41,435 nucleotides of DNA from positions 1 to 41,435 of the forward strand of contig JAGHSG010000055.1 in assembly GCA_018066005.1 (NCBI GenBank), written 5' to 3'. Position numbers and translations under genes: made by a program. Numbering within the stretch: the first letter of the stretch is position 1; each line of letters begins with the position of its first letter. Under the pieces are notes generated by a model. The model was given only the letters and a program-made list of their open reading frames with translations, made no database searches and was not told the origin of the DNA. Shown here one piece after another: positions 2,224-25,067 of the stretch. This DNA comes from Bacteroidales bacterium (GTDB lineage: Bacteria; Bacteroidota; Bacteroidia; Bacteroidales; Paludibacteraceae).

Positions 2224-4583
2224 AATGTATTTATTTTTATATTTTTTATTTCAGGATCACGCATCAGTTGGTCGGTAATCTGGTCTTCCAGACCCGCTTG
2301 CACCGCCCTTTTGACGGGTCGGGCACCCATCTTGGGGTTATACGCTTTTTCCAACAGTTGCTTCTTGGCAGCAGCCGAAACAGACAGACGATGTCCCTGT
2401 TCAAGCAGTCGTTTTTGCAGCAACGACACCTCTATATCTATTATGCGCGCGATGTGCTCACGCGTAAGCGGCGCAAAGGTGATAATGTCGTCAATACGGT
2501 TCACAAACTCCGGCGGGAAGGTCTTCTCCAACGCTTTCTTCATCGTCTGTTCGGCAACCGTTTGTGTCACCTCGCCGGACTCAAAGCCCACGCCGGCACC
2601 AAAATCGTTCAACTGCCTTGTTCCTACATTAGATGTCAGGATAATAATCGTATTGCGGAAATCAACCGAACGTCCCTGACGGTCTGTCATCCGACCCTCA
2701 TCCAGCACCTGCAAAAGGACATTGAAAATGTCCGGATGGGCTTTCTCTATCTCATCAAACAGCACAATCGAATAGGGGCGACGGCGAACAGCCTCGGTCA
2801 GTTTACCGCCCTCCTCGTGTGCTATATACCCCGGAGGCGCTCCCACCAACAGCGAGACGGTATGTTTCTCCATATATTCCGACATATCAAAGCGGATGAC
2901 AGCATCCCGCGAGCCGAACATCTCTTCTGCCAAGCACTGTGCCAAGTAGGTCTTGCCGACACCTGTCGGACCCAGGAAGAAGAAAGTCCCTATCGGACGG
3001 CGGGGGTCACGCAACCCCAGACGCGAACGGCGAATAGCCCGTACGACGCGGTCGATGGCCTGGTCCTGACCCATAATACGACGGTGCAGCGCCTCCGGCA
3101 GAGCCATTAACTGCTCATTTTCCTTGCGAGCCACCCGCTGAACAGGCACGCCCGACATGACGCTGACCACACGCGCTATATCTTCCGCCGTCACCACTTT
3201 GGACGTGCATCGCGCACCTGCCTCGTCCATAGCGTCGATGGCTTTGTCGGGCAGAGCACGGTCGGTGATGTAACGCTCCGTGAGCACAGCACAGGCCTGC
3301 AAAGCTTCGTCGGTGTAAATCTTGCGGTGATGGTCGCTGTACGAAGACCTCAAACCGTGCAGTATTTGAACGGTCTCATCAATCGTTGTGGGCCGAACGG
3401 TCACTTTTTGGAAACGCCGTTCCAAAGCGGCATCTTTCTCGATGGACAGACGATATTCAGCCGTCGTGGTGGCACCAATGCACTGCACTTCGCCCCGCGA
3501 CAGAGCCGGTTTGAGTATATTGGCGGCATCCAACGAACCGGACGCGTTGCCGGCACCTATGATGGTGTGTATTTCGTCGATGAACAGGATGATTTCGGGA
3601 TGGTTGAACAGTTCGTCCACAATATCTTTCATCCGCTCCTCAAACTGTCCGCGGTAAGTCGTACCTGCCACAATAGAAGCCATATCCAACGCCACAACAC
3701 GCAATTTATTCAGGTGTTTGGACTTGGACTTGACCCATTTCAGTGCCAGCCCTTCCACAATAGCCGTCTTACCCACGCCGGCGTCGCCTATCAGGATAGG
3801 GTTATTCTTCTTGCGACGCGCCAGAATCTGCTCCAACCTGTTTATCTCCGCACGGCGACCGATGACGGGGTCCAATAAGCCCTCGCGTGCCATCTGTGTC
3901 AAGTCGCGACTGAAATAATCCAAGGCGGGCGTATCCGACTCGGGTTCTTTGGGCGGCTCGTTATTGCCGTTATCTTCGGGCACATCGGGCGTCGGCATAT
4001 CCGACTTGCGTCCCGGGCGCGAGTTGAGCAACAGGAAACCAGCACCTGCTATGTGCGAGAATAAACTATTTGCCATACGCTCTGCCTCCTTGGCAAACTC
4101 TTTCTCTTCCTCCTCATCGGGACGGGGCTTCTCCACCGCCGAATCCAGACGTTCGGCAGGGTGCGGATACAGCCGCTCTATCGAGTTATAATTGATATTA
4201 TAATCCCTGTTCAGCAACATAGCCGGGTAGTTAGCCCGCTCTTGCAGCAGCGCCAACAGGATGTGCACCGACCCGCACGCGTTCGCCTGGTAAGCCTCAC
4301 GCTCCAACATAGCCATCCGCAGAATAAGAGATGTCGTGTCCGTGAAATCGGGATGAATAGGCGGATTAGGAGTCAGCGTTCTCAGTTGGAGATTCTCCTC
4401 CAAGTTTTGTTTGAGTTCGGTGAACATCACCCCACTGCGGCAAAGCAACTCAAACGCCTTGCCCTCTTGCAAACGCAATATGCCCAGCATCAGATGCTCC
4501 GGCCCCAGCAGCACGTTGTGCAGACGGCCGACCTCCTCCGAGGCGTATTGCATAATCTTATTAAAATTTTGTGTATAGTTCAT
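2220..4583 (-). CDS. Class I AAA+ Clp/Hsp100 ATPase, ClpC-type (ATP-dependent Clp protease ATP-binding subunit)
   Basis: 787 aa with an N-terminal Clp repeat domain and two Walker A motifs ([15 protein letters not shown] and [15 protein letters not shown]). There is no long ClpB-type middle domain. A VGF tripeptide follows TSNVG in the second ATPase domain, at the position of the ClpP-docking loop in ClpC. Confidence 0.9.
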
Positions 4584-6604
4584 TACTTATAAAAATGGAA
4601 TGCCAGTCCGGCACGAAAAACATCAGGGTTATTAGGATATGTCGGCATCGAGAAATAGTAGCGCGACATAAACGTCGTATTGAAATGCTCATACATCGCG
4701 AAGAAACGCAGGTGCAACAAGCGCACATAGAAATTGACATACACGTTCAGCGTCGGATAGTTACCCACTTTCTCCTCCGTCTGTGCGCAGAACTGACCCA
4801 GAGCAGGGTCCCAAATGGGCGCATAATACGTGGTGTTATACTTCAAATCCACACCTATCTGCGCATCCAACGCCTTGAACCACGTGCCGTGATAATACAG
4901 GTTGGAGTAGAGCGCTATCATAGGAACGGCTATGTATTCCGACGATGAATACTGGTAAATAACGTGGTTATCCCAGTTAATCCAAGGTGTCGTCAGGTTG
5001 AGTTGCATATCTACCGCCAGCAACGAGATAGAACCTTTGGTCATCTGTTGCGGGCCCGGAGCCCCGTGCTCAAAATAGATATACTTGGATATATTTTCAT
5101 AATCCACTTTGACACGCGGCGTCACCCACTGGGTCGGATAAGCCACCTGACCGCCGATGTGCAGTTTATATGATTTAGCAAAGTCGTTCTGCTTATCCGT
5201 CACCTTGTTATATCCCCAGCGGTAGTGGTTGCTGTTGTAGTGCAGCAGGTAATAATTAGGTGTCTCGTTGCGGAAAGACGCCTCGGCACGAAGGGTCAGC
5301 GTGTCCTTGCCCAACTGAAAACGGCCGTCCAGATGACCGTACACGTCAAACTGACCTATCTTGTACCCGTACAGGCACACCTCACCGCCAAAACCGTAAT
5401 ACACGTACTTACCCCTGTTCTTGTACAACTCACCGCCGACAAAGATATTGTTTTGCCACGTGTAATTATACTTATTGTCCGCCATGTGGTGCAGCGGTTG
5501 CGACAAGTAAGCATTGTAATCCAATCCAACCTGCGAAAAATCGTTATACTCCGTCGTGGCATTCAGGAATCGCTGCGCCTCGTGAGTAGCAAAGACCGTT
5601 GCACCGAATTTGAGTTTGGTGTTGAACTCCTCCTCAAAGGTCGCCGACAGTGTGTTACGAATAGTCAGCGTAGCCGCCGAGTCCAACGTCGAAGTCAGGT
5701 TGCGGTAACAATTCGGATAGAACTCCTGCCTACTCTGCTCCTTATACCGACGGGTCTGCTCATTCGTCTCAAAGACGTGACGGAAAGTCATCACGGGCAC
5801 ATAAACAACCTTCGTCGAGTCCAACTCGACCCACTTGCCGCGTTTGTCGCGCTCCTTGTAATGAACGGTCTCCTCACGCTCCACGCAGATGCTGTAATAG
5901 TGGTTCAGATACCCCGCCAGATAGCGATACCCCGTCATACCCTCCATATTGGTGGCAATATCTTCCGTCTTCATCTCCTTGTCCCTAATCTGCGACGGGT
6001 CGACCAGACCGCCGTTCTCGAAGGTACTCATCCTATTGAACGTGAACGCCGCTTGCAGACTGTAATGGTTGCCGTTATACGACGTGAACGCCGTGCCGTT
6101 GAACGTCTTTCCCGCCTGCGACTTGTAATGACCCACCGCGTTGGTGAAGTTCAACGTCGTACCGAAATTCCAACGGGGCGTGATATTGCCCGTGAACAGG
6201 AACTTCAACTCGTCATCCTCGTGGTACGTCTTGAAACCGCGCTTGTAGGATATATACGAATAAGGTGTCGTCGTGTTGTAGAAATGAACGGTCTGCGGGG
6301 TCGGCGTATAGATATCATACGCGTCGCCGAACAGGAAATCCGTGCGGTGCGTGCGGTCAAAATAAATAGCCGACATAGCAGGGGAAATGAGGTTGCCGTT
6401 GAATAAGTTGCATATACTCAAATCATACAACTCGTTACGCATGGCAAAGTTCATAAACGAACTATCCACAGGCACCGTATCCGCCAATTCCAACGGACGC
6501 GGCAACTCCCACGAACGGATAACCGTCTTAGGGAGTTTATTCTTGGCCGTCAAGGGCACACACACCATCAACAGCAACAGACCATATATCCTACTCCTGC
6601 GCAC
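4583..6604 (-). CDS. Outer-membrane beta-barrel protein (putative porin family of Bacteroidota)
   Basis: 673 aa with a signal peptide (MRRSRIYGLLLLMVCVPLTA) and an aromatic-rich alternating strand pattern throughout. The family assignment is from memory only. Its stop shares 1 nt with the next start (TAATG). Confidence 0.7.
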   Translation of the reverse strand: MRRSRIYGLLLLMVCVPLTAKNKLPKTVIRSWELPRPLELADTVPVDSSFMNFAMRNELYDLSICNLFNGNLISPAMSAIYFDRTHRTDFLFGDAYDIYTPTPQTVHFYNTTTPYSYISYKRGFKTYHEDDELKFLFTGNITPRWNFGTTLNFTNAVGHYKSQAGKTFNGTAFTSYNGNHYSLQAAFTFNRMSTFENGGLVDPSQIRDKEMKTEDIATNMEGMTGYRYLAGYLNHYYSICVEREETVHYKERDKRGKWVELDSTKVVYVPVMTFRHVFETNEQTRRYKEQSRQEFYPNCYRNLTSTLDSAATLTIRNTLSATFEEEFNTKLKFGATVFATHEAQRFLNATTEYNDFSQVGLDYNAYLSQPLHHMADNKYNYTWQNNIFVGGELYKNRGKYVYYGFGGEVCLYGYKIGQFDVYGHLDGRFQLGKDTLTLRAEASFRNETPNYYLLHYNSNHYRWGYNKVTDKQNDFAKSYKLHIGGQVAYPTQWVTPRVKVDYENISKYIYFEHGAPGPQQMTKGSISLLAVDMQLNLTTPWINWDNHVIYQYSSSEYIAVPMIALYSNLYYHGTWFKALDAQIGVDLKYNTTYYAPIWDPALGQFCAQTEEKVGNYPTLNVYVNFYVRLLHLRFFAMYEHFNTTFMSRYYFSMPTYPNNPDVFRAGLAFHFYK

Positions 6605-7895: not shown

Positions 7896-7994
7896 TTCTA
7901 TTAGGCGACCTCGTCGCCGTTCTATTAGCAAGCTCTGCTTGCGTTCTATTAGGCAGCTTGCTGCCGTTCTATTAGGGCTCTGCCCGTTCTATTC
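7896..7994 (-). repeat. Tandem array of a constant linker plus four variable GC-rich mini-hairpins (intergenic, within the operon)
   Basis: On the plus strand, TTCTATTA starts at 7896, 7920, 7944 and 7967, and TTCTATTC at 7987. Between them lie GGCGAC-CTC-GTCGCC, GCAAGC-TCT-GCTTGC, GGCAGC-TT-GCTGCC and GGGC-TCT-GCCC. The sense (minus) strand linker is UAAUAGAAC. Confidence 0.92.
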
Positions 7995-11097: not shown

Positions 11098-11988
11098 CTA
11101 TCTTCCTAAATCCGACCAACCGAAATCCGACATCATAACATACACCGACTTGGCCTTCTCCATCACGCCGTAGTCGATACTTATATTCGGGCAGGTCGGG
11201 AACATATCCTGTATGAACGCCTCCTCCTTATCCGTACCCATACACCACGCACCCTGCTTGAACTTGTCCGCTATCTCCGGCAGGCTACGCGCTATCTCGT
11301 TACCTATCGTGCGCAGGTTCCACAGAAAAATACCCGAGTTCCACAAGAACTCGCCACTCTGATAGAACACCTTGGCCAAGTCGCTATCCGGCTTCTCCGT
11401 AAAAGTCTTCACCTTACGCAATGTCCCATCGCCCTGCTCCATCTGGATATAGCCATAACCCGTCGCGGGACGCGTCGGTTGCATACCTAAGGTCAGTAAC
11501 GTGTCGTGCTCACCCACAAAAGCCAACCCCTCACGTATCACGTTCTTAAAAACATCTTCCTGCATAATCCGGTGATCCGACGGCGTCACTACCATACTCA
11601 CGTTCAACCGCTCGTCGTTCCAATCCACCTCTTCACCTTCACGCATCGGACGACCGAAGACTTGCTCAAACACCATACTCCGTATCCGGGCCACCGCATA
11701 CGCTATGCACGGTGCCGTGTTGCGACGGGTCGGCTCCCATAATATCTGATGCGGCGACAGGTCCGGCAGTTGCTCCATAATAATATCCTTGTATAGCACA
11801 TTCGTCACCAGCAGCAGATGCTCTTCCGGTACAACCTCGCGAAAAAGGTCCACCGTCATCTGCAAGGGCGAACGACCCGTTCCGAATACATCCAAGAACT
11901 GCTTGGGACGCTCGATTCGGCTGAATGGCCAAAAACGTCTCCCCGCTCCCCCGGCCATAATAACGCAATAATTGTCTGTCTTTTTCAT
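11098..11988 (-). CDS. Sugar-1-phosphate nucleotidyltransferase (mannose-1-phosphate guanylyltransferase-like, N-terminal domain only)
   Basis: It carries the MAGGAGRRFWPFSR nucleotide-binding motif. I moved the start to MKKTDNY at 11988, because the longer ORF (to 12018) would cover the promoter box. The protein ends right after ...GWSDLGR. Confidence 0.8.
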   Translation of the reverse strand: MKKTDNYCVIMAGGAGRRFWPFSRIERPKQFLDVFGTGRSPLQMTVDLFREVVPEEHLLLVTNVLYKDIIMEQLPDLSPHQILWEPTRRNTAPCIAYAVARIRSMVFEQVFGRPMREGEEVDWNDERLNVSMVVTPSDHRIMQEDVFKNVIREGLAFVGEHDTLLTLGMQPTRPATGYGYIQMEQGDGTLRKVKTFTEKPDSDLAKVFYQSGEFLWNSGIFLWNLRTIGNEIARSLPEIADKFKQGAWCMGTDKEEAFIQDMFPTCPNISIDYGVMEKAKSVYVMMSDFGWSDLGR

Positions 11989-12007
11989 GATTTTTCGAAT
12001 TAGCGTG

Positions 12008-12015
12008 CAAATATA
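12008..12015 (-). promoter_or_regulatory. Candidate -7 box for the 11988-1909 operon
   Basis: The minus strand reads TATATTTG, which matches TAnnTTTG. The -33 position is only CTTG. Confidence 0.4.
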
Positions 12016-12075
12016 CAACTTTTATTTCATATATGCAAGCGCGCGCGTGATTTTTTTCATTTAGTACCCAAAAAA

Positions 12076-12107
12076 TTTGCACAAAAAATATATTTTCCTT
12101 ACCTTTG
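12076..12107 (+). promoter_or_regulatory. Bacteroides-type promoter for the GldD-like / pcrB / tadA / dusB block
   Basis: TTTG lies at 12076-12079 and TACCTTTG at 12100-12107, with 20-nt spacing. Confidence 0.65.
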
Positions 12108-12113
12108 CACAAC

Positions 12114-12172
12114 CATCAATGCGCAAAGCGCACATCAATTGCCGTCAGGCAACCATCCATGCGCAAAGCGCA
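12114..12172 (+). repeat. Three tandem mini-hairpins with CAUCAA-type linkers filling the 5' UTR
   Basis: The hairpins are TGCGC-AAA-GCGCA (12120-12132), TTGCC-GTCA-GGCAA (12139-12152) and TGCGC-AAA-GCGCA (12160-12172). Each is preceded by CATCAA or CATCCA. CCAACAATG with the start codon follows. Confidence 0.9.
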
Positions 12173-12178
12173 CCAACA

Positions 12179-12769
12179 ATGAAAAAACTTGTTTTTTCAA
12201 TATCAATCCTCGCCCTGCTGCTCTCCTGCACCCGTCCCGCTACGCCCAAGGAGTACGGCTACTTCCGCATCGCCCTCCCCCCACACGAATACATCAATTC
12301 GCAAAGCGAACCAACAATGCGCAGAGCGCAACAACAATTGCCAAAGGCAAGCATCAATTATCAACTGTCAACTGCCGCGCAGTTGCAGCCGCTGGACTCC
12401 CCCGGCTGGTTCAACATCCACTACCCCACTCTCAACGCCACCATACACTGCTCATATATGCCTGTGCATAACAACCTCAAAAGTCTTATCGACGACTCCG
12501 AAGAGTTCGTCTATTCACATACCGTCAAGGCGTCCGCCATACCCGAACAGGCGTACAGCGACCCCGTCAACCGCGTCTATGGCGTCTATTACGAACTTGA
12601 AGGCAACACGGCTACACCCGCCCAGTTCTGGGTAACCGACTCCACACGCCATTTTTTCCGCGCGTCCGTCTATATAGACTGCATACCCAATCAGGACTCT
12701 CTCGCACCCGTCATCGACTACCTGCAAACGGACTGCCGGGTACTCATCGAATCACTACGCTGGCAATGA
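12179..12769 (+). CDS. Lipoprotein, tentatively GldD-like
   Basis: A lipobox (ILALLLSC) follows MKKLVFS. The PKEYGYFRIALPPHEY segment resembles my recollection of the GldD N-terminus. I placed the start at 12179 because the ORF-track start at 12077 lies upstream of the -7 box. Confidence 0.6.
   Translation: MKKLVFSISILALLLSCTRPATPKEYGYFRIALPPHEYINSQSEPTMRRAQQQLPKASINYQLSTAAQLQPLDSPGWFNIHYPTLNATIHCSYMPVHNNLKSLIDDSEEFVYSHTVKASAIPEQAYSDPVNRVYGVYYELEGNTATPAQFWVTDSTRHFFRASVYIDCIPNQDSLAPVIDYLQTDCRVLIESLRWQ
12292..12385 (+). repeat. A second mini-hairpin array of the same design, in frame inside the GldD-like CDS
   Basis: The hairpins are TTCGC-AAA-GCGAA (12298-12310), TGCGC-AGA-GCGCA (12318-12330) and TTGCC-AAA-GGCAA (12338-12350), at a 20-nt period with CATCAA/CAACAA linkers. 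CAACTG-CCGCG-CAGTTG follows at 12369-12385. The array encodes INSQSEPTMRRAQQQLPKASIN... Confidence 0.9.
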
Positions 12770-13473: not shown

Positions 13474-13908
13474 ATGACCGAAGATGAAAAATATATGACT
13501 CTCGCCCTCGCCGAAGCCGAACAGGCTCGGCAGCGCAACGAAGTACCTATCGGATGCGTCATCGTCTGCCAAGGGCAGATAGTAGGACGGGGACATAACC
13601 TCACCGAGACCCTACAGGACGTCACCGCACATGCCGAGATACAGGCTATCACGGCAGCCGCGCAGACGCTGGGCGGCAAATACCTCACCGACTGTACCCT
13701 CTATGTCACCGTCGAACCCTGTGTCATGTGTGCCAGCGCTATCGGCTGGGCACAGGTGCCGCGACTCGTCTATGGAGCACCCGACACCAAACGCGGCTAC
13801 ACGCTCTTTGCTCCGCAAGCCCTGCACCCCAAATGTACCGTCACCGCCGGCATCCTCGCCCCCGCCTGCTCCCAACTCATCTCCACCTTCTTCACCTCCA
13901 AACGCTAA
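13474..13908 (+). CDS. tadA: tRNA adenosine(34) deaminase
   Basis: 144 aa with the HAE and PCVMC zinc-binding motifs. Confidence 0.93.
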   Translation: MTEDEKYMTLALAEAEQARQRNEVPIGCVIVCQGQIVGRGHNLTETLQDVTAHAEIQAITAAAQTLGGKYLTDCTLYVTVEPCVMCASAIGWAQVPRLVYGAPDTKRGYTLFAPQALHPKCTVTAGILAPACSQLISTFFTSKR

Positions 13909-13911
13909 ACT

Positions 13912-14910
13912 ATGCTCTACCTCGCTCCCATGGAAGATGTTACGGACCCCGCTTTCCGTATGTTATGCAAACGTTTCGGTGCCGACCGTGTCTATACCGA
14001 GTTCGTCAATGCCGACGCACTCGTACGCGATGTCAACGCCGCTACGCGTAAACTTACCATATCCGATGCCGAGCGACCCGTGGCTATTCAGATATATGGA
14101 CGCGATGCCGACTCGATGGCGGAAGCGGCACGTATCGTCGAACAGGCACGGCCGGATTTTATTGATATCAACTTCGGCTGCCCCGTCAAAAAAGTCGCCG
14201 GCAAAGGTGCCGGAGCCGGACTCCTACGCGACGTGCCGCGTATGCTTGACATAACACGCGCCGTAGTCAATGCCGTCTCTATACCCGTCACCGCCAAGAC
14301 ACGACTCGGATGGGATGCCGACCACCTCATCATCGTCGATCTCGCCGAAGCGCTCCAGGACTGCGGCATACGCGAGTTGGCTATACACGGACGGACACGC
14401 GCACAGATGTACACAGGCGAAGCCGACTGGACACTCATCGGAGCCGTTAAGAACAACCCCCGCATGCACATCCCTATCATCGGCAACGGCGATGTCACCA
14501 CACCCCAACGCGCCAAGGAGTGCTTCGACCGCTACGGCGTCGATGCCATCATGATCGGACGCGCCACCTTCGGCTGCCCCTGGATCTTCTCCGACATAAA
14601 GTCCTACCTCACCGGTTCCCCGATTCACCGATTCACCGATTCACCGATTCCACGCACAATGCAATGGTGCGTCTCCATCCTCAAAGAGCATGTCGAGCGT
14701 TCCATCGAGTGGATAGGTGATGAGCGGAAAGGTATCGTGCATAGTCGCCGCCACTTTGCCAACAGTCCCGTCTTCAAAGGGTTGTACGACTTCAAGCAGA
14801 CCCGCATAGCCCTCCTCCGCGCCGAGACCAAAGACGAAGTCTTCTCCATCATGGATGACATCGTCTCCCGCTGGTCCCCCGCCTACAACGAGAATCTAAA
14901 CAACAGATGA
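13912..14910 (+). CDS. dusB: tRNA dihydrouridine synthase
   Basis: 332 aa with Dus motifs LAPMEDVTD, DINFGCP, IHGRTR and GNGD. An octamer-repeat insertion lies between the barrel and the C-terminal domain. Confidence 0.92.
   Translation: MLYLAPMEDVTDPAFRMLCKRFGADRVYTEFVNADALVRDVNAATRKLTISDAERPVAIQIYGRDADSMAEAARIVEQARPDFIDINFGCPVKKVAGKGAGAGLLRDVPRMLDITRAVVNAVSIPVTAKTRLGWDADHLIIVDLAEALQDCGIRELAIHGRTRAQMYTGEADWTLIGAVKNNPRMHIPIIGNGDVTTPQRAKECFDRYGVDAIMIGRATFGCPWIFSDIKSYLTGSPIHRFTDSPIPRTMQWCVSILKEHVERSIEWIGDERKGIVHSRRHFANSPVFKGLYDFKQTRIALLRAETKDEVFSIMDDIVSRWSPAYNENLNNR
14612..14651 (+). repeat. Octanucleotide tandem repeat (CCGATTCA) inside dusB
   Basis: The units are CCGGTTCC (degenerate), CCGATTCA three times (14620-14643) and CCGATTCC. 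Together they encode SPIHRFTDSPIP. Confidence 0.95.
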
Positions 14911-17497: not shown

Positions 17498-17514
17498 AAA
17501 AAAGTGTACCTTTG
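17484..17514 (+). promoter_or_regulatory. Divergent promoter for the 17527 membrane-protein gene
   Basis: TACCTTTG lies at 17507-17514, and a partial -33 (ATTG) sits 20 nt upstream. Confidence 0.5.
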
Positions 17515-17526
17515 TAGCGCATAACA

Positions 17527-18261
17527 ATGACTTCTCGGTGGAAAACATATTATAACTCGTGGAAGAAATACCTCCGGTGGATCAGTTGGGGTATGAGTGC
17601 TGCCGCACTGGCATACCTCGTCTATAAACTATATACCTACCCCGACTACCGACAACTCAACCTCTACCTCCACGCTGCCGGCACAACCGATTGGTACTGC
17701 CTGACCGTTGCCGTCCTGCTCATACCAGTCCAACTGCTCGCCGAAGCACGACGATGGCAATGGACCCTGCGCGGATGGAAAAAAATATCCCTCCATACGA
17801 GTTGGCAACACGTCCTCACCGGACTTATCGCCGGATTCATAACACCCTATAGAGCCGGAGACATACCCGCACGACTCCTCGCCGCAGGAATAGACTCCAC
17901 ACACAACGACAACGACAACTGGCACACATGGCTGCACGACTGGAAAAAATGGTTCCCCGTACTCCTGTGGACCGTCATCCGATACCTCATCTGGGGACTC
18001 CAACTGTGGGCGGTACTGACCTTCGTCCATATACACCTGTCACCCCTGCAAGCACTCTCCTCTATCGCCCTCTACTACCTCGTCATCAGCATCATGCCCG
18101 GACTGCCCGCTGCCGATGTCGCACTCAAAGGAGGATGGGCGGTTATCATCTTTGAACAATATACTGACAATATACCTGCCATCGCTATCGCCGTCAGCAT
18201 AATTTGGCTTATCAATACGATTTTACCCGTTTTATTTGCAAGTATCAAAAAGTTTTTGTAA
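17527..18261 (+). CDS. Integral membrane protein (possibly UPF0104 / LPG-synthase-TM-like)
   Basis: 244 aa with several hydrophobic helices. The family assignment is a guess. Confidence 0.6.
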   Translation: MTSRWKTYYNSWKKYLRWISWGMSAAALAYLVYKLYTYPDYRQLNLYLHAAGTTDWYCLTVAVLLIPVQLLAEARRWQWTLRGWKKISLHTSWQHVLTGLIAGFITPYRAGDIPARLLAAGIDSTHNDNDNWHTWLHDWKKWFPVLLWTVIRYLIWGLQLWAVLTFVHIHLSPLQALSSIALYYLVISIMPGLPAADVALKGGWAVIIFEQYTDNIPAIAIAVSIIWLINTILPVLFASIKKFL

Positions 18262-18266: not shown

Positions 18267-18588
18267 CAGTCAGTTTTTCGAAGTGTTGAAAACAAAATAA
18301 AACTCTATTTTAATCACAAGCGGGCTTTTTAGCCTTTTATCAGACATAAGAACGACACGTCGTCGGTGTCCATAAAAGCCTTATATCGCCCGCCACAAAG
18401 GAACAAAGAACACGAAAAATATGCTTTGTGAACTTCGTATCTTCGTGTTGGCGGCATACGTGTGGAGAGCCCTATCGGCAAGTAGCGGAGCGGAGTGCCC
18501 AACAGGGCGAAACGCACAAAGCAGACAGTTGTGATAAAAAAACAGTTATATAGAAGTGAAATTAGTAAGCTAACTAAATCAATCTAAT
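18267..18588 (+). promoter_or_regulatory. Long structured 5' leader, or an independent small RNA, upstream of malQ
   Basis: A ~320-nt non-coding gap has a GC-rich core (18320-18535). It contains mutually exclusive complementary segments and a 37-codon sORF (18421-18534). Confidence 0.4.
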
Positions 18589-23673: not shown

Positions 23674-25067
23674 TTTTGCTTTTTCTTATTTTTTGATGCT
23701 TTATGCCAAACGATGCACACCAATAATACGGATAACGAAGCCGCAGCAATCCAGAAAAGTAAAGCGGGAGTGAAATTATACACACTCTTTTCAACCCCAT
23801 CCACTATCTCGATTGTCTTGTTGCCATCCAGCAAAACACCCGATACAATATCTTGCAAACCGGCTGCCGCATACGAGGCCATACCTACGATACCCAAGGC
23901 AGCGCCACTGACCTCACGCGGTACAATATCCACAGCCATCAATCCGCCTACAAAGCAAATAAGAATACCTATCGCTATACCGAACAGGACCATGGCCAAT
24001 ATATTCATCCACACAGCATTGCCGCCAAAAGCAAAGAGTGTCAGGGCAATGACCTCAATCACACCCGAAGAAACCGCCAAAACATATCGGTTGCCACGAA
24101 ACAGTTTATCACTAATCCATCCGCTGAACACCGTACCTATCACACCCAATAAAGCATTAATAGAGATAATCTGCGTGGCATCCACCAACGTAAATCCTTT
24201 GGTTTCTTGCAAGAAGAGCACGCCCCATCCGTTGACTGCATAGCGGCTGACATACATAAAAGCGGAAGCAAAAGCCAATACCCACACGTAGGGGTTTTTC
24301 ACCACCTGCCACTGCATACCTCCAACGGATTTTTTTTCTTCCTTTTGCGGTTCTTCTTCGCCCGCATACACGGCGATAGGTGGCAATCCCTTGCTCTCAG
24401 GCGAGTCATGCAACATCAATAGTACAATGAGTATGCCTACCCCGCCGGCCACAGCGGCTCCTACAAAACCGAACTGCCAACCGAACAGGCTAACTAATCC
24501 TCCTACCAATAGGAATGAGAAGAACTCGCCCAAGTTATGACTAAGAGACCAGAATCCATAGAAAGTGCCACGTCTCGACAATGGGAACCAACGCGACAAG
24601 CCTACTACACAAGGAGGAGCGCCCATTGACTGAGCAGCGCCGTTAATAGCCCACATAATAGCGAAGATGACATAGAACAGACTCATGGAAATGAGAGTCT
24701 GTTGCAGCGTAAGAAAGCCCATCACCCCCACAACGATATTGGCGATAGTGGAAAGCAATAAACCAGTAGCCATAAAACGTTTGATATTGCTATGGTCAGC
24801 CAAGAATCCGCTTATTAACTTACCTATCGCATAGGCGAACAATAGACAAGAAGATATTACACCTAATTGAGTGGCATCCAATAAGCCGCCATCCAAGATA
24901 GGTTTTTTCACCACATTGAGCGTAGTGCGGCACACATAATACATCGAATAGCCCAACGTGACAGAGATAATCGTAGACCACTGGAGCCTACGATACCTCT
25001 TTTTGATATCAGCGTCCGTTCCCTGGAAAGGAGCGGACGCCGGAGATTTCTTAAAAAAGTCAAGCAT
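23670..25067 (-). CDS. MFS transporter, organophosphate:Pi antiporter (UhpC/GlpT-like sugar-phosphate permease)
   Basis: 465 aa with about 12 TM segments. The N-terminal YRRLQWSTIISVTLGYSMYYVCR pattern is typical of the OPA family. Confidence 0.85.
   Translation of the reverse strand: MLDFFKKSPASAPFQGTDADIKKRYRRLQWSTIISVTLGYSMYYVCRTTLNVVKKPILDGGLLDATQLGVISSCLLFAYAIGKLISGFLADHSNIKRFMATGLLLSTIANIVVGVMGFLTLQQTLISMSLFYVIFAIMWAINGAAQSMGAPPCVVGLSRWFPLSRRGTFYGFWSLSHNLGEFFSFLLVGGLVSLFGWQFGFVGAAVAGGVGILIVLLMLHDSPESKGLPPIAVYAGEEEPQKEEKKSVGGMQWQVVKNPYVWVLAFASAFMYVSRYAVNGWGVLFLQETKGFTLVDATQIISINALLGVIGTVFSGWISDKLFRGNRYVLAVSSGVIEVIALTLFAFGGNAVWMNILAMVLFGIAIGILICFVGGLMAVDIVPREVSGAALGIVGMASYAAAGLQDIVSGVLLDGNKTIEIVDGVEKSVYNFTPALLFWIAAASLSVLLVCIVWHKASKNKKKQK

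Follow-up and report, generated by a model that had tools for sequence, protein, structure and literature searches.

Palindromic DNA lying in frame within conserved genes is reportedly known from Rickettsia, where Ogata et al. are said to have described the Rickettsia palindromic elements (RPEs) in 2000. RPEs are single elements of 100–150 bp whose sequence is conserved across the family. Here we analyse a 41,435-nt stretch of DNA from a Bacteroidales bacterium of the Paludibacteraceae (contig JAGHSG010000055.1), referred to as a whole as the window, in which a gene for a GldD-like lipoprotein carries three tandem 20-nt hairpin units inside its coding sequence (CDS) and three related units in its 5′ leader. 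The array in the CDS is an interchangeable allele of a strain-variable cassette in a surface loop of the protein, not a gldD-specific regulatory device, and it is probably a single allele of a hairpin minisatellite that is specific to the lineage, is dispersed and turns over passively, with selection acting as a filter.

The parallel with RPEs had been drawn in the first-pass annotation of this DNA, and it is apt as an analogy: palindromic hairpin DNA lies in frame in conserved genes, in permissive surface segments and also in non-coding DNA, and the gldD array likewise occupies a permissive segment of variable length and non-conserved position (predicted local distance difference test score, pLDDT, 71–79). 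Membership in the RPEs is another matter, as no single conserved element of ∼100–150 bp is found, and what is conserved here is a spacer of 7–8 nt together with the palindromic form. The gldD units are 20 nt long, stand in tandem in 1–5 copies with covarying stems, are swapped with non-palindromic repeats and turn over among near-identical strains. By analogy, RPEs may be regarded as the nearest functional counterpart, with membership failing on size, tandem layout and stem conservation.

Mycobacterial interspersed repetitive units (MIRUs) are units of 46–101 bp, and Ehrlichia ruminantium has actively variable tandem repeats. Like these variable-number tandem repeats (VNTRs), the elements described here are dispersed tandem units, tens of nucleotides long, in leaders and intercistronic spacers, polymorphic among strains and in some cases with frames open through them; MIRUs, in contrast, are without variable-stem hairpins and do not lie inside enzyme loops. 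To our knowledge, replacement of one repeat family by another at a single site is not a described feature of MIRUs or VNTRs. With a period of 20 nt and three units per array in the window, arranged head to tail, the array falls within the generic class of dispersed minisatellites or VNTRs of bacteria. Cyanobacterial short tandemly repeated repetitive (STRR) sequences, reportedly described by Mazel et al. in 1990, are said to be tandem heptamers such as CAACAGT, and these dispersed 7-nt families resemble the alternating CAACGCT, CCGATTCA, CTAATCTC and CTACTACC repeats found at our sites. They are, however, described as intergenic and non-palindromic, and a 20-nt hairpin with in-frame coding copies falls outside that description.

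Repetitive extragenic palindromic (REP) sequences are extragenic, alternate in orientation and are associated with REP-associated tyrosine transposases (RAYTs). One account describes REPs and bacterial interspersed mosaic elements (BIMEs) as carrying a GTAG or CGTC tag 5′ of an imperfect palindrome with conserved stems (PMC3733652). Short palindromes, a tag at one end and strain-polymorphic clusters are common to both. The present arrays differ in that the tags are CAAT or TTAG, the stems vary and the repeats are direct; nor are they confined to extragenic DNA, since copies lie inside the gldD and dus CDSs. No RAYT or HUH transposase is encoded in the 41-kb contig. Within the order, the closest described element is the minisatellite BrickBuilt from Porphyromonas gingivalis, whose 23-nt tandem units are half conserved and half variable; it is present in ∼19 dispersed copies of 1–22.8 units that lie near promoters, always between genes, and have leader and tail segments with terminal inverted repeats (PMC4596501). 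The half-conserved unit, variable copy number and promoter-near position are shared, but BrickBuilt is without the spacer/palindrome architecture, and the gldD arrays abut the −7 box and the ATG without leader or tail ends. Neither the terminal inverted repeats and leader–tail segments nor the strictly intergenic location of a MITE (miniature inverted-repeat transposable element) of the BrickBuilt type is found here.

The window is an entire contig of a metagenome-assembled genome; proteins that cluster with those it encodes bear the name Paludibacteraceae bacterium (Bacteroidales), and the sequence also recurs in gut and faecal metagenomes. Among GTDB genomes, three CAAT spacers at a 20-nt period were found at at least 119 loci; the matches listed were simple 10- or 20-nt tandem repeats from many phyla, none of them related, and they carry no information on dispersal. 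A stem-constrained two-unit pattern, insensitive to variable stems, gave 23 loci and no relative in JGI metagenomes; the loci were satellites of eukaryote-like type, 20-mers of marine origin whose stems have 4 bp, and one array of high-GC 21-mers. Peptides encoded by the array in all frames yielded four candidates when compared with proteins, both hits being GldD, in a search so insensitive that it missed even the queried Dus allele.

Hairpin arrays in the gldD leader and coding sequence

The host open reading frame (ORF) matches PF25593 with E = 7.7e-55 over profile positions 4–170 of 170, as a full-length family member, and its N-terminus, MKKLVFSISILALLLSC, reads as a lipoprotein signal peptide with its Cys. 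A homologue search with GldD returned 690 proteins. The repeat unit, here called family 1, is 20 nt long and consists of a constant C/A-rich spacer ending in CAAT followed by a perfect, GC-rich palindrome with a 5-bp stem and a 3-nt loop. As the first-pass annotation had claimed, three such units lie in the CDS (12292–12350) and read as stated; the additional hairpin reported after them is also present, with a stem of 7 bp instead of 6 bp. The proposed kinship with the leader array holds as well. The two arrays stand 178 nt apart and their units are 80–87% identical in 30-nt registers; in contigs L004/L132 of close strains the CDS array is nearly a direct copy of leader units 2–3, and in L011 a TTTGC-AAA-GCAAA unit is common to both arrays. 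The gldD array is confirmed to be genuine and non-random, and it copies the leader array in frame.

Chance and codon composition are excluded as the source of the hairpin pattern. Across the 41 kb, the unit pattern with at most one mismatch matches the six leader and CDS units only, and three arrays of at least three phased perfect hairpins occur in the window, against a mean of 0.12 and a maximum of 1 in 50 dinucleotide shuffles. The gldD gene contains six perfect hairpins compared with a mean of 0.87 in 5000 codon permutations, none of which produced a phased chain of three (0/5000), and three hairpins never arose in permutations of the cassette's own 25 codons (0/20000). Unrelated prokaryotic loci (∼827 kb) contained six hairpin clusters, none with a constant spacer. 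Family-1 units are without a stop codon in all three sense frames, as a 20-nt unit in coding DNA has to be, and three overlapping ORFs cover 12189–12471. A second hairpin family (family 2, sense CTAATAGAAC) and the CTAATCTC repeats contain stops and were observed outside coding DNA only.

The start context CCAACAATG is indeed duplicated, occurring at the true start (12173–12181) and again at 12311–12319, where the ATG is in frame 138 nt (46 codons) downstream. It had been suggested that this AUG, at 12317, could start a signal-less GldD isoform, which would be cytoplasmic. Such a start, which would draw on the repetition of the true-start context in CCAACAAUG and on the shared frame in the window, is extremely unlikely. 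The proposal fails because the ATG is only a part of the unit sequence CAATGCGC and is out of frame or absent in six allele types (out of frame in L004/L132; absent from L007, L009, L010 and L156), and is thus not conserved; moreover, its U and G are paired inside a hairpin stem, and GldD without the lipobox would be mislocalised.

Upstream of the leader array lies a putative gldD promoter, its boxes assigned by the published Bacteroides consensus (−33 TTTG, −7 TAnnTTTG), and the box is kept in L001, L004, L007, L010, L011 and L156. Transcription would start near 12113–12116. Given the putative promoter position at 12076–12107, the leader array would lie entirely in the 5′ untranslated region (UTR), of which it would form nearly the whole. 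One metatranscriptome contig covers 12127–12280. An 8-bp A/U hairpin, UGAAAAAA-CUUG-UUUUUUCA (12180–12199), overlaps the codons for MKKLVF together with the start codon; close strains keep this hairpin, and L011 and L156 lack it. ATGs at 12119 and 12159 precede the GldD start, and related proteins (P0001–P0011) have also been called from ATGs or a TTG that lie within the leader array or upstream of it. These leader-started models, of 203–230 aa, carry a spurious MREAHINCRQATINAQSAPT extension because the leader array is open in frame.

Covariation was computed on 12 distinct family-1 units of equal length. Neither the spacer nor the closing T-A and C-G pairs vary, double compensatory changes occur at three of the five stem pairs and 98.3% of cells are paired; none of 500 shuffles reached the observed covariation score. 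At least seven different stems were observed (beside the tags CAAT in family 1 and TTAG in family 2), with no G-U/G-T intermediates among the variant stems of the 12 units, and the loops are free to vary (AAA, GAA, GGA, AGA, ACA, GTA, TTT, CTC, TCT, GTCA, ATCA and GCCA).

Compensatory stem changes with freely variable loops are consistent with cis-acting RNA, in which the leader would set mRNA stability or initiation and the CDS array (codons 38–58) would pause ribosomes after the signal peptide emerges. The position after the signal peptide fits such pausing, the folds are stronger than those of shuffled sequences (z = −4.16 for the leader, a modest −2.27 for the CDS segment) and RNA contigs include the leader. 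The three family-1 arrays that were observed directly all lie on the sense strand of their gene, and the two directly read family-2 arrays share one strand relative to the adjacent genes. However, we regard an RNA function as rather improbable. It is weakened because in close strains, in an otherwise intact gene, heptamers or octamers that do not pair take the place of the hairpins or the leader array is missing altogether, because family-1 units also lie 700 nt inside dus, the gene of a cytoplasmic enzyme without a signal peptide, and because family 2 appears in both orientations. The variant stems are also without G-U pairs, and Rfam gave no match at gathering score anywhere in the window and, for 11950–12500, no match at E ≤ 1.

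Three further candidates were rejected. For a terminator or attenuator, no U-tract follows the hairpins on the sense strand, as read from the sequence. Against a transcription-factor operator array stand the compensated variation of the half-sites and the asymmetry of the spacer, which fit structure or copying and not a dimer that binds a specific sequence. A CRISPR-like array would have the reverse layout (here the 7-nt spacer is constant and the 13-nt palindrome varies) and a far longer period.

Strain variation at the gldD loop and leader

Alleles of close strains were read from assembled contigs, which hide rare variants, and most gldD alleles were retrieved via full-length protein hits, which biases against frameshifted forms. 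In an alignment of 30 proteins, mature GldD varies in length only between PPHEY and LSTAA. Distant GldDs (50–60% identity) have ∼10 unrelated residues there, and 13 close relatives (75–99% identity) have 6 to 34 residues made of different repeats; as proposed at first, the segment behaves as an insertion, here in a loop of variable length. The AlphaFold model of GldD has a mean pLDDT of 88.6, and residues 39–58 are predicted to form an excursion between strands E38–40 and E62–64, with the pLDDT of 71–79 given above compared with >90 in the core. The model (m4a1b29da0b53) is nearest to α/β sandwiches of the PsbP/Mog1 type (PDB 9grx, 2vu4 and 5yfg; TM-score 0.4–0.56), and a PDB sequence search with GldD found no solved GldD structure.

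The CDS block is hypervariable among strains that are otherwise 97–98% identical. At least 10 distinct alleles were found, with lengths of 120, 129, 159, 168 and 201 nt, all multiples of 3; two alleles taken from contig graphs, without protein ascertainment, differ by −39 and +42 nt and are likewise in frame. Several alleles occur together in single metagenomes, where contigs break at 12291 and 12361–12368. Unrelated 7–8-nt tandem repeats replace family 1 at identical sites, and P0006/L004 read family-1 units in another frame than the window. Because close strains carry unrelated repeats or other frames at the loop, the loop peptide is not ancestral, and it is the nucleotide pattern that is conserved; the alternative of an ancestral peptide segment, considered earlier, is rejected.

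Loops that differ completely between co-resident strains, in a cell-envelope lipoprotein whose signal-peptide region is also repeat-built in L009, L011 and L156, are what might be seen if the repeats generated variants for a hypervariable surface loop under diversifying protein selection, as in escape from recognition by phage or host. We consider this very unlikely, since like behaviour is observed in dus, encoding a tRNA-modifying enzyme, and in untranslated leaders, and since the nucleotide pattern is kept across frames while the peptide is not. In the sister lineage, the signal-peptide h-region (L009 52–150, L011 254–350, L156 2733–2815) is made of 8-nt CACCTGYC/TACCTGTT repeats, and unusual N-termini, MKKLCHLSPATCHLLSVLCYLFPVPCLLSSC among them, are the result.

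Units of 20, 7 and 8 nt are not multiples of three, lie inside the reading frame and vary in copy number between strains, which is consistent with a phase-variable contingency locus in which gain or loss of a unit toggles gldD. This is nevertheless highly improbable: all of the at least 10 alleles are in frame, including the two without protein ascertainment, the high-identity protein hits all span 100% of the query with no truncated forms, and single-allele samples give one clean contig (X2). No out-of-frame allele was seen among the at least 10, most of which were found via intact proteins and in contigs that drop rare variants. Protein P0123 (103 aa) was considered as a frameshifted allele and rejected, as the L156 contig has an intact ORF of 193/214 aa and the short protein is an alternative gene call.

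Copy number is polymorphic at both positions, with zero, one or three units in the leader and three or five units, together with rearranged forms, in the CDS. The null leader allele differs by the array alone, and the array begins ∼4 nt past the −7 box and reaches the ATG. Between strains, the paralogous leader and CDS arrays change in concert.

Cassettes at other sites and their origin

The view of the array as an insertion event specific to gldD did not survive comparison with other sites, as like cassettes are found in dus and in several leaders. Contigs L131 (9.7 kb) and L132 (6.9 kb) align to the window with 97–98% identity, and the strongly divergent blocks are repeat cassettes (7967–7993, 12292–12384, 13905 and 14597–14664); the sole other block, 17501–17592 (L131), marks the end of shared gene order. 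The Dus proteins are near-identical between strains save for a cassette of 13–18 residues with three unrelated alleles. The two family-1 units of the L131 allele read CAACAAT-TGCGCC-CTC-GGCGCA and CCAACAAT-GCGCC-TCT-GGCGC. The dus octamer array of the window is multi-copy, because its depth is ∼3.5x that of the flanks and it has many loose ends with different continuations. In L132, X2, X3 and X5 the dus leader site holds 35–38 nt of CTAATCTC/TACACTCT octamers. The same repeats are shared between genes: CCGATTCA is found in dus of the window and of L156, in the L009 gldD leader and in the L010 gldD CDS, and CTAC repeats are found in dus of L132 and in gldD of L009.

Family 2 has a constant spacer, GTTCTATTAG, and variable GC-rich palindromes (GGCGAC-CTC-GTCGCC, GCAAGC-TCT-GCTTGC, GGCAGC-TTG-CTGCC and GGGC-TCT-GCCC) at a period of 23–24 nt. 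Its array at 7896–7993 is replaced in L131 by (CTTAATTC)n, has 4–5x the depth of its flanks in metagenomes, with unit deletions and a null allele, and is joined in other strains to intergenic sites close to positions 332, 515, 689 and 1881, in two cases in inverted orientation. Both L131 and L132 begin exactly at this array. Family 2 also stands in the NTP_transferase 5′ leader of L156, where the window has nothing. Each family thus occurs at several loci: family 1 in the leader and the loop of gldD and in the dus loop of L131, and family 2 at 7896–7993, the L156 leader and further joints.

Cassette variation is best understood as a lineage-wide hypervariable repeat phenomenon. The passive minisatellite that we think probable would work as follows. 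Slippage in replication between directly repeated spacers would make arrays grow and shrink, and arrays may be seeded at new sites or swapped between sites where CAAT/CAAC microhomology lets templates switch or allows ectopic gene conversion. The native flanks read ...ACATCAAT|TATCAACTG in the CDS, CACAA...CAATG at the start codon and CACAATG at the dus site, and the CDS with its array removed reads GAA TAC ATC AAT TAT CAA CTG. Palindrome arms may stay complementary through intrastrand template switching (quasi-palindrome correction) or through selection for the hairpin in DNA or RNA; we lean towards a DNA-level process, which the lack of G-T intermediates and the loop pairs AAA/TTT and AGA/TCT favour without proving. 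Selection would act as a filter, with coding copies surviving only if in frame, stop-free and in a permissive excursion; all copies seen in genes are in frame, free of stops and placed in loops. The outcome would be a GldD whose loop of 20 low-complexity residues has no specific function, and any hairpin effects on mRNA stability or translation would be secondary. At 12369–12400 and its equivalents in L010, L011 and L156, the TAAxxxPL codons form a strong hairpin in every allele, with different pairings (7–9 bp), and this post-cassette hairpin could be a slippage-promoting structure.

The concerted change of leader and CDS arrays and the replacement of family 1 by unrelated repeats at identical sites support passive turnover, and several points weigh against it. 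In the strain comparisons, the spread mechanism was never seen directly. Family 1 is found at three sites only, with depth not raised, and is not high-copy. Perfect stems with free loops are also the signature of a selected functional hairpin, and the directly placed arrays, all of which lie in a 5′ leader, an intercistronic spacer or a CDS, could reflect function rather than tolerance. Lastly, retrieval of alleles mostly through full-length proteins disfavours frameshifted forms, and the older runs, present only as assembled contigs, would hide rare variants.

Dispersal raises the question of mobility. If a dedicated enzyme moved the arrays as small mobile elements comparable to RPEs, REPs or MITEs, a single-strand HUH/RAYT-type transposase, for example, might read the hairpin beside CAAT in family 1 or TTAG in family 2, and the arrays would enter leaders and permissive loops as selfish DNA. 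Both families are dispersed with clean presence/absence alleles, family 2 is multi-copy with contig joints that suggest both orientations, a short constant tag stands beside each hairpin, and the in-frame, stop-free insertion in a surface loop resembles RPEs. We nevertheless find mobility unlikely. The stems are variable, not copied; the units of 20–24 nt are always tandem and direct, without terminal inverted repeats or target-site duplications; neither a transposase or HUH protein nor a reverse transcriptase is encoded in the 41-kb window; and an enzyme specific to hairpins would leave the non-palindromic 7–8-mers at the same sites unaccounted for. It is also doubtful, to a similar degree, that dedicated machinery rather than ordinary slippage writes, erases and exchanges cassettes at hotspots in gut Paludibacteraceae, in 5′ leaders and in permissive loops that would include those of housekeeping enzymes. 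Such machinery might be a transposase that acts on single strands and is directed by hairpins, or a polymerase that adds repeats from a template; the system would be previously undescribed, its modules being hairpin 20–24-mers with a constant tag and freshly made palindromes, and telomere-like repeats of 7–8 nt.

Interchangeable repeat-built loops are carried by a conserved secretion/motility lipoprotein and by a tRNA-modifying enzyme in uncultured gut Bacteroidales, and the same repeats form 5′ leaders of genes. Gene callers run ORFs through the leader array, giving spurious N-termini (models of 216–230 aa), and assemblies break at cassette sites, which at the same time are high-resolution strain markers. 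The sites provide a natural experiment in how much low-complexity load a protein loop and a leader without a Shine–Dalgarno sequence tolerate. A constant tag beside covarying palindromes without G-T intermediates means that either DNA-level copying or selection maintains them, a question that can be tested.

Feature coordinates and neighbouring variation

Positions in the window of the gldD, dus and family-2 features, with the alleles read at the cassette sites
Feature	Position	Strand	Details
gldD-like lipoprotein gene	12179–12769	+	196 aa; Pfam GldD_lipo PF25593
GldD signal peptide and lipobox Cys17	12179–12229	+	read from sequence
Putative Bacteroidetes-type gldD promoter	12076–12107	+	−33 TTTG 12076–12079; −7 TAnnTTTG (TACCTTTG) 12100–12107
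Leader hairpin array, family 1	12111–12178	+	three units; last spacer CCAACAAT runs into start codon
Leader unit palindrome TGCGC-AAA-GCGCA	12120–12132	+	
Leader unit palindrome TTGCC-GTCA-GGCAA	12139–12152	+	
Leader unit palindrome TGCGC-AAA-GCGCA	12160–12172	+	
In-frame family-1 hairpin array, gldD CDS	12289–12358	+	encodes residues 39–58, INSQSEPTMRRAQQQLPKAS
CDS unit 1 CATCAA-TTCGC-AAA-GCGAA	12292–12310	+	
CDS unit 2 CCAACAA-TGCGC-AGA-GCGCA	12311–12330	+	
CDS unit 3 ACAACAA-TTGCC-AAA-GGCAA	12331–12350	+	
Terminal spacer GCATCAAT after CDS unit 3	12351–12358	+	
Internal in-frame ATG (M47)	12317–12319	+	part of unit sequence CAATGCGC
Hairpin CAACTGC-CGC-GCAGTTG	12369–12385	+	7 bp, 3-nt loop; directly 3′ of cassette, in STAAQL codons
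Family-2 hairpin array	7896–7993	+	between GT4/5 gene stop (7994) and GH57 gene start (7879)
Cassette site, dus 5′ leader	13905–13911	+	empty in window
Octamer cassette inside dus	14609–14650	+	(TCACCGAT/CCGATTCA)x5, in frame
gldD CDS allele, window and L011			three hairpin units; 159 nt anchor to anchor
gldD CDS allele, L001–3			five units incl. new TGCACC-TTT-GGTGCA; 201 nt
gldD CDS allele, L004–6			rearranged units, different frame, peptide SPQRTNNSTIAVGNQQCAQRT; 168 nt
gldD CDS allele, L007–8 and L156			(CAACGCT)4–5, no hairpins; 120 nt (L007–8)
gldD CDS allele, L010			CCGATTCA-type octamers; 129 nt
gldD CDS allele, L009			CTAC-rich repeats; 129 nt
gldD leader allele, window and close strains			three units
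gldD leader allele, L156			one unit
gldD leader allele, X22			zero units; 12112 joined to 12177 through TTT
gldD leader allele, L009			(CCGATTCA)6 in place of hairpin units
dus cassette allele, window			(CCGATTCA)5
dus cassette allele, L131			two family-1 hairpin units
dus cassette allele, L132			CTAC-rich repeats

The promoter/leader of the divergent NTP_transferase gene at 11993–12056 (GCGTGCAAATATAC; reverse complement TATATTTG, with a −7-like box) reaches a depth of up to 25x that of its flanks, has many different flanking continuations and appears to be a dispersed promoter-like segment. Two promoter-bearing intergenic regions hold alternating CG tracts, at 12037–12049 and 566–590 (AAGCGCGCGCGTG; ACGCGCGCACGCGTACGCGT). 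Between the sigma-70 gene and the rRNA operon, (GAACCCGCTAT)x2.6 at 658–686 has one unit fewer in X2 and X3.

Further along, an (ACAACG)n hexamer tract at 17903–17919, within the ORF at 17527–18261, is longer by 12 and 24 nt in other strains, in frame. Upstream of the GH77 gene (18268–18572), 303 nt are swapped for 28 nt in X5 and X9, and X2 and X3 have an insertion of ∼1.6 kb at 23679. In L156, a YafQ-type toxin gene with a small upstream partner (4150–4661), absent from the window, lies between pcrB and the cytidine deaminase gene.

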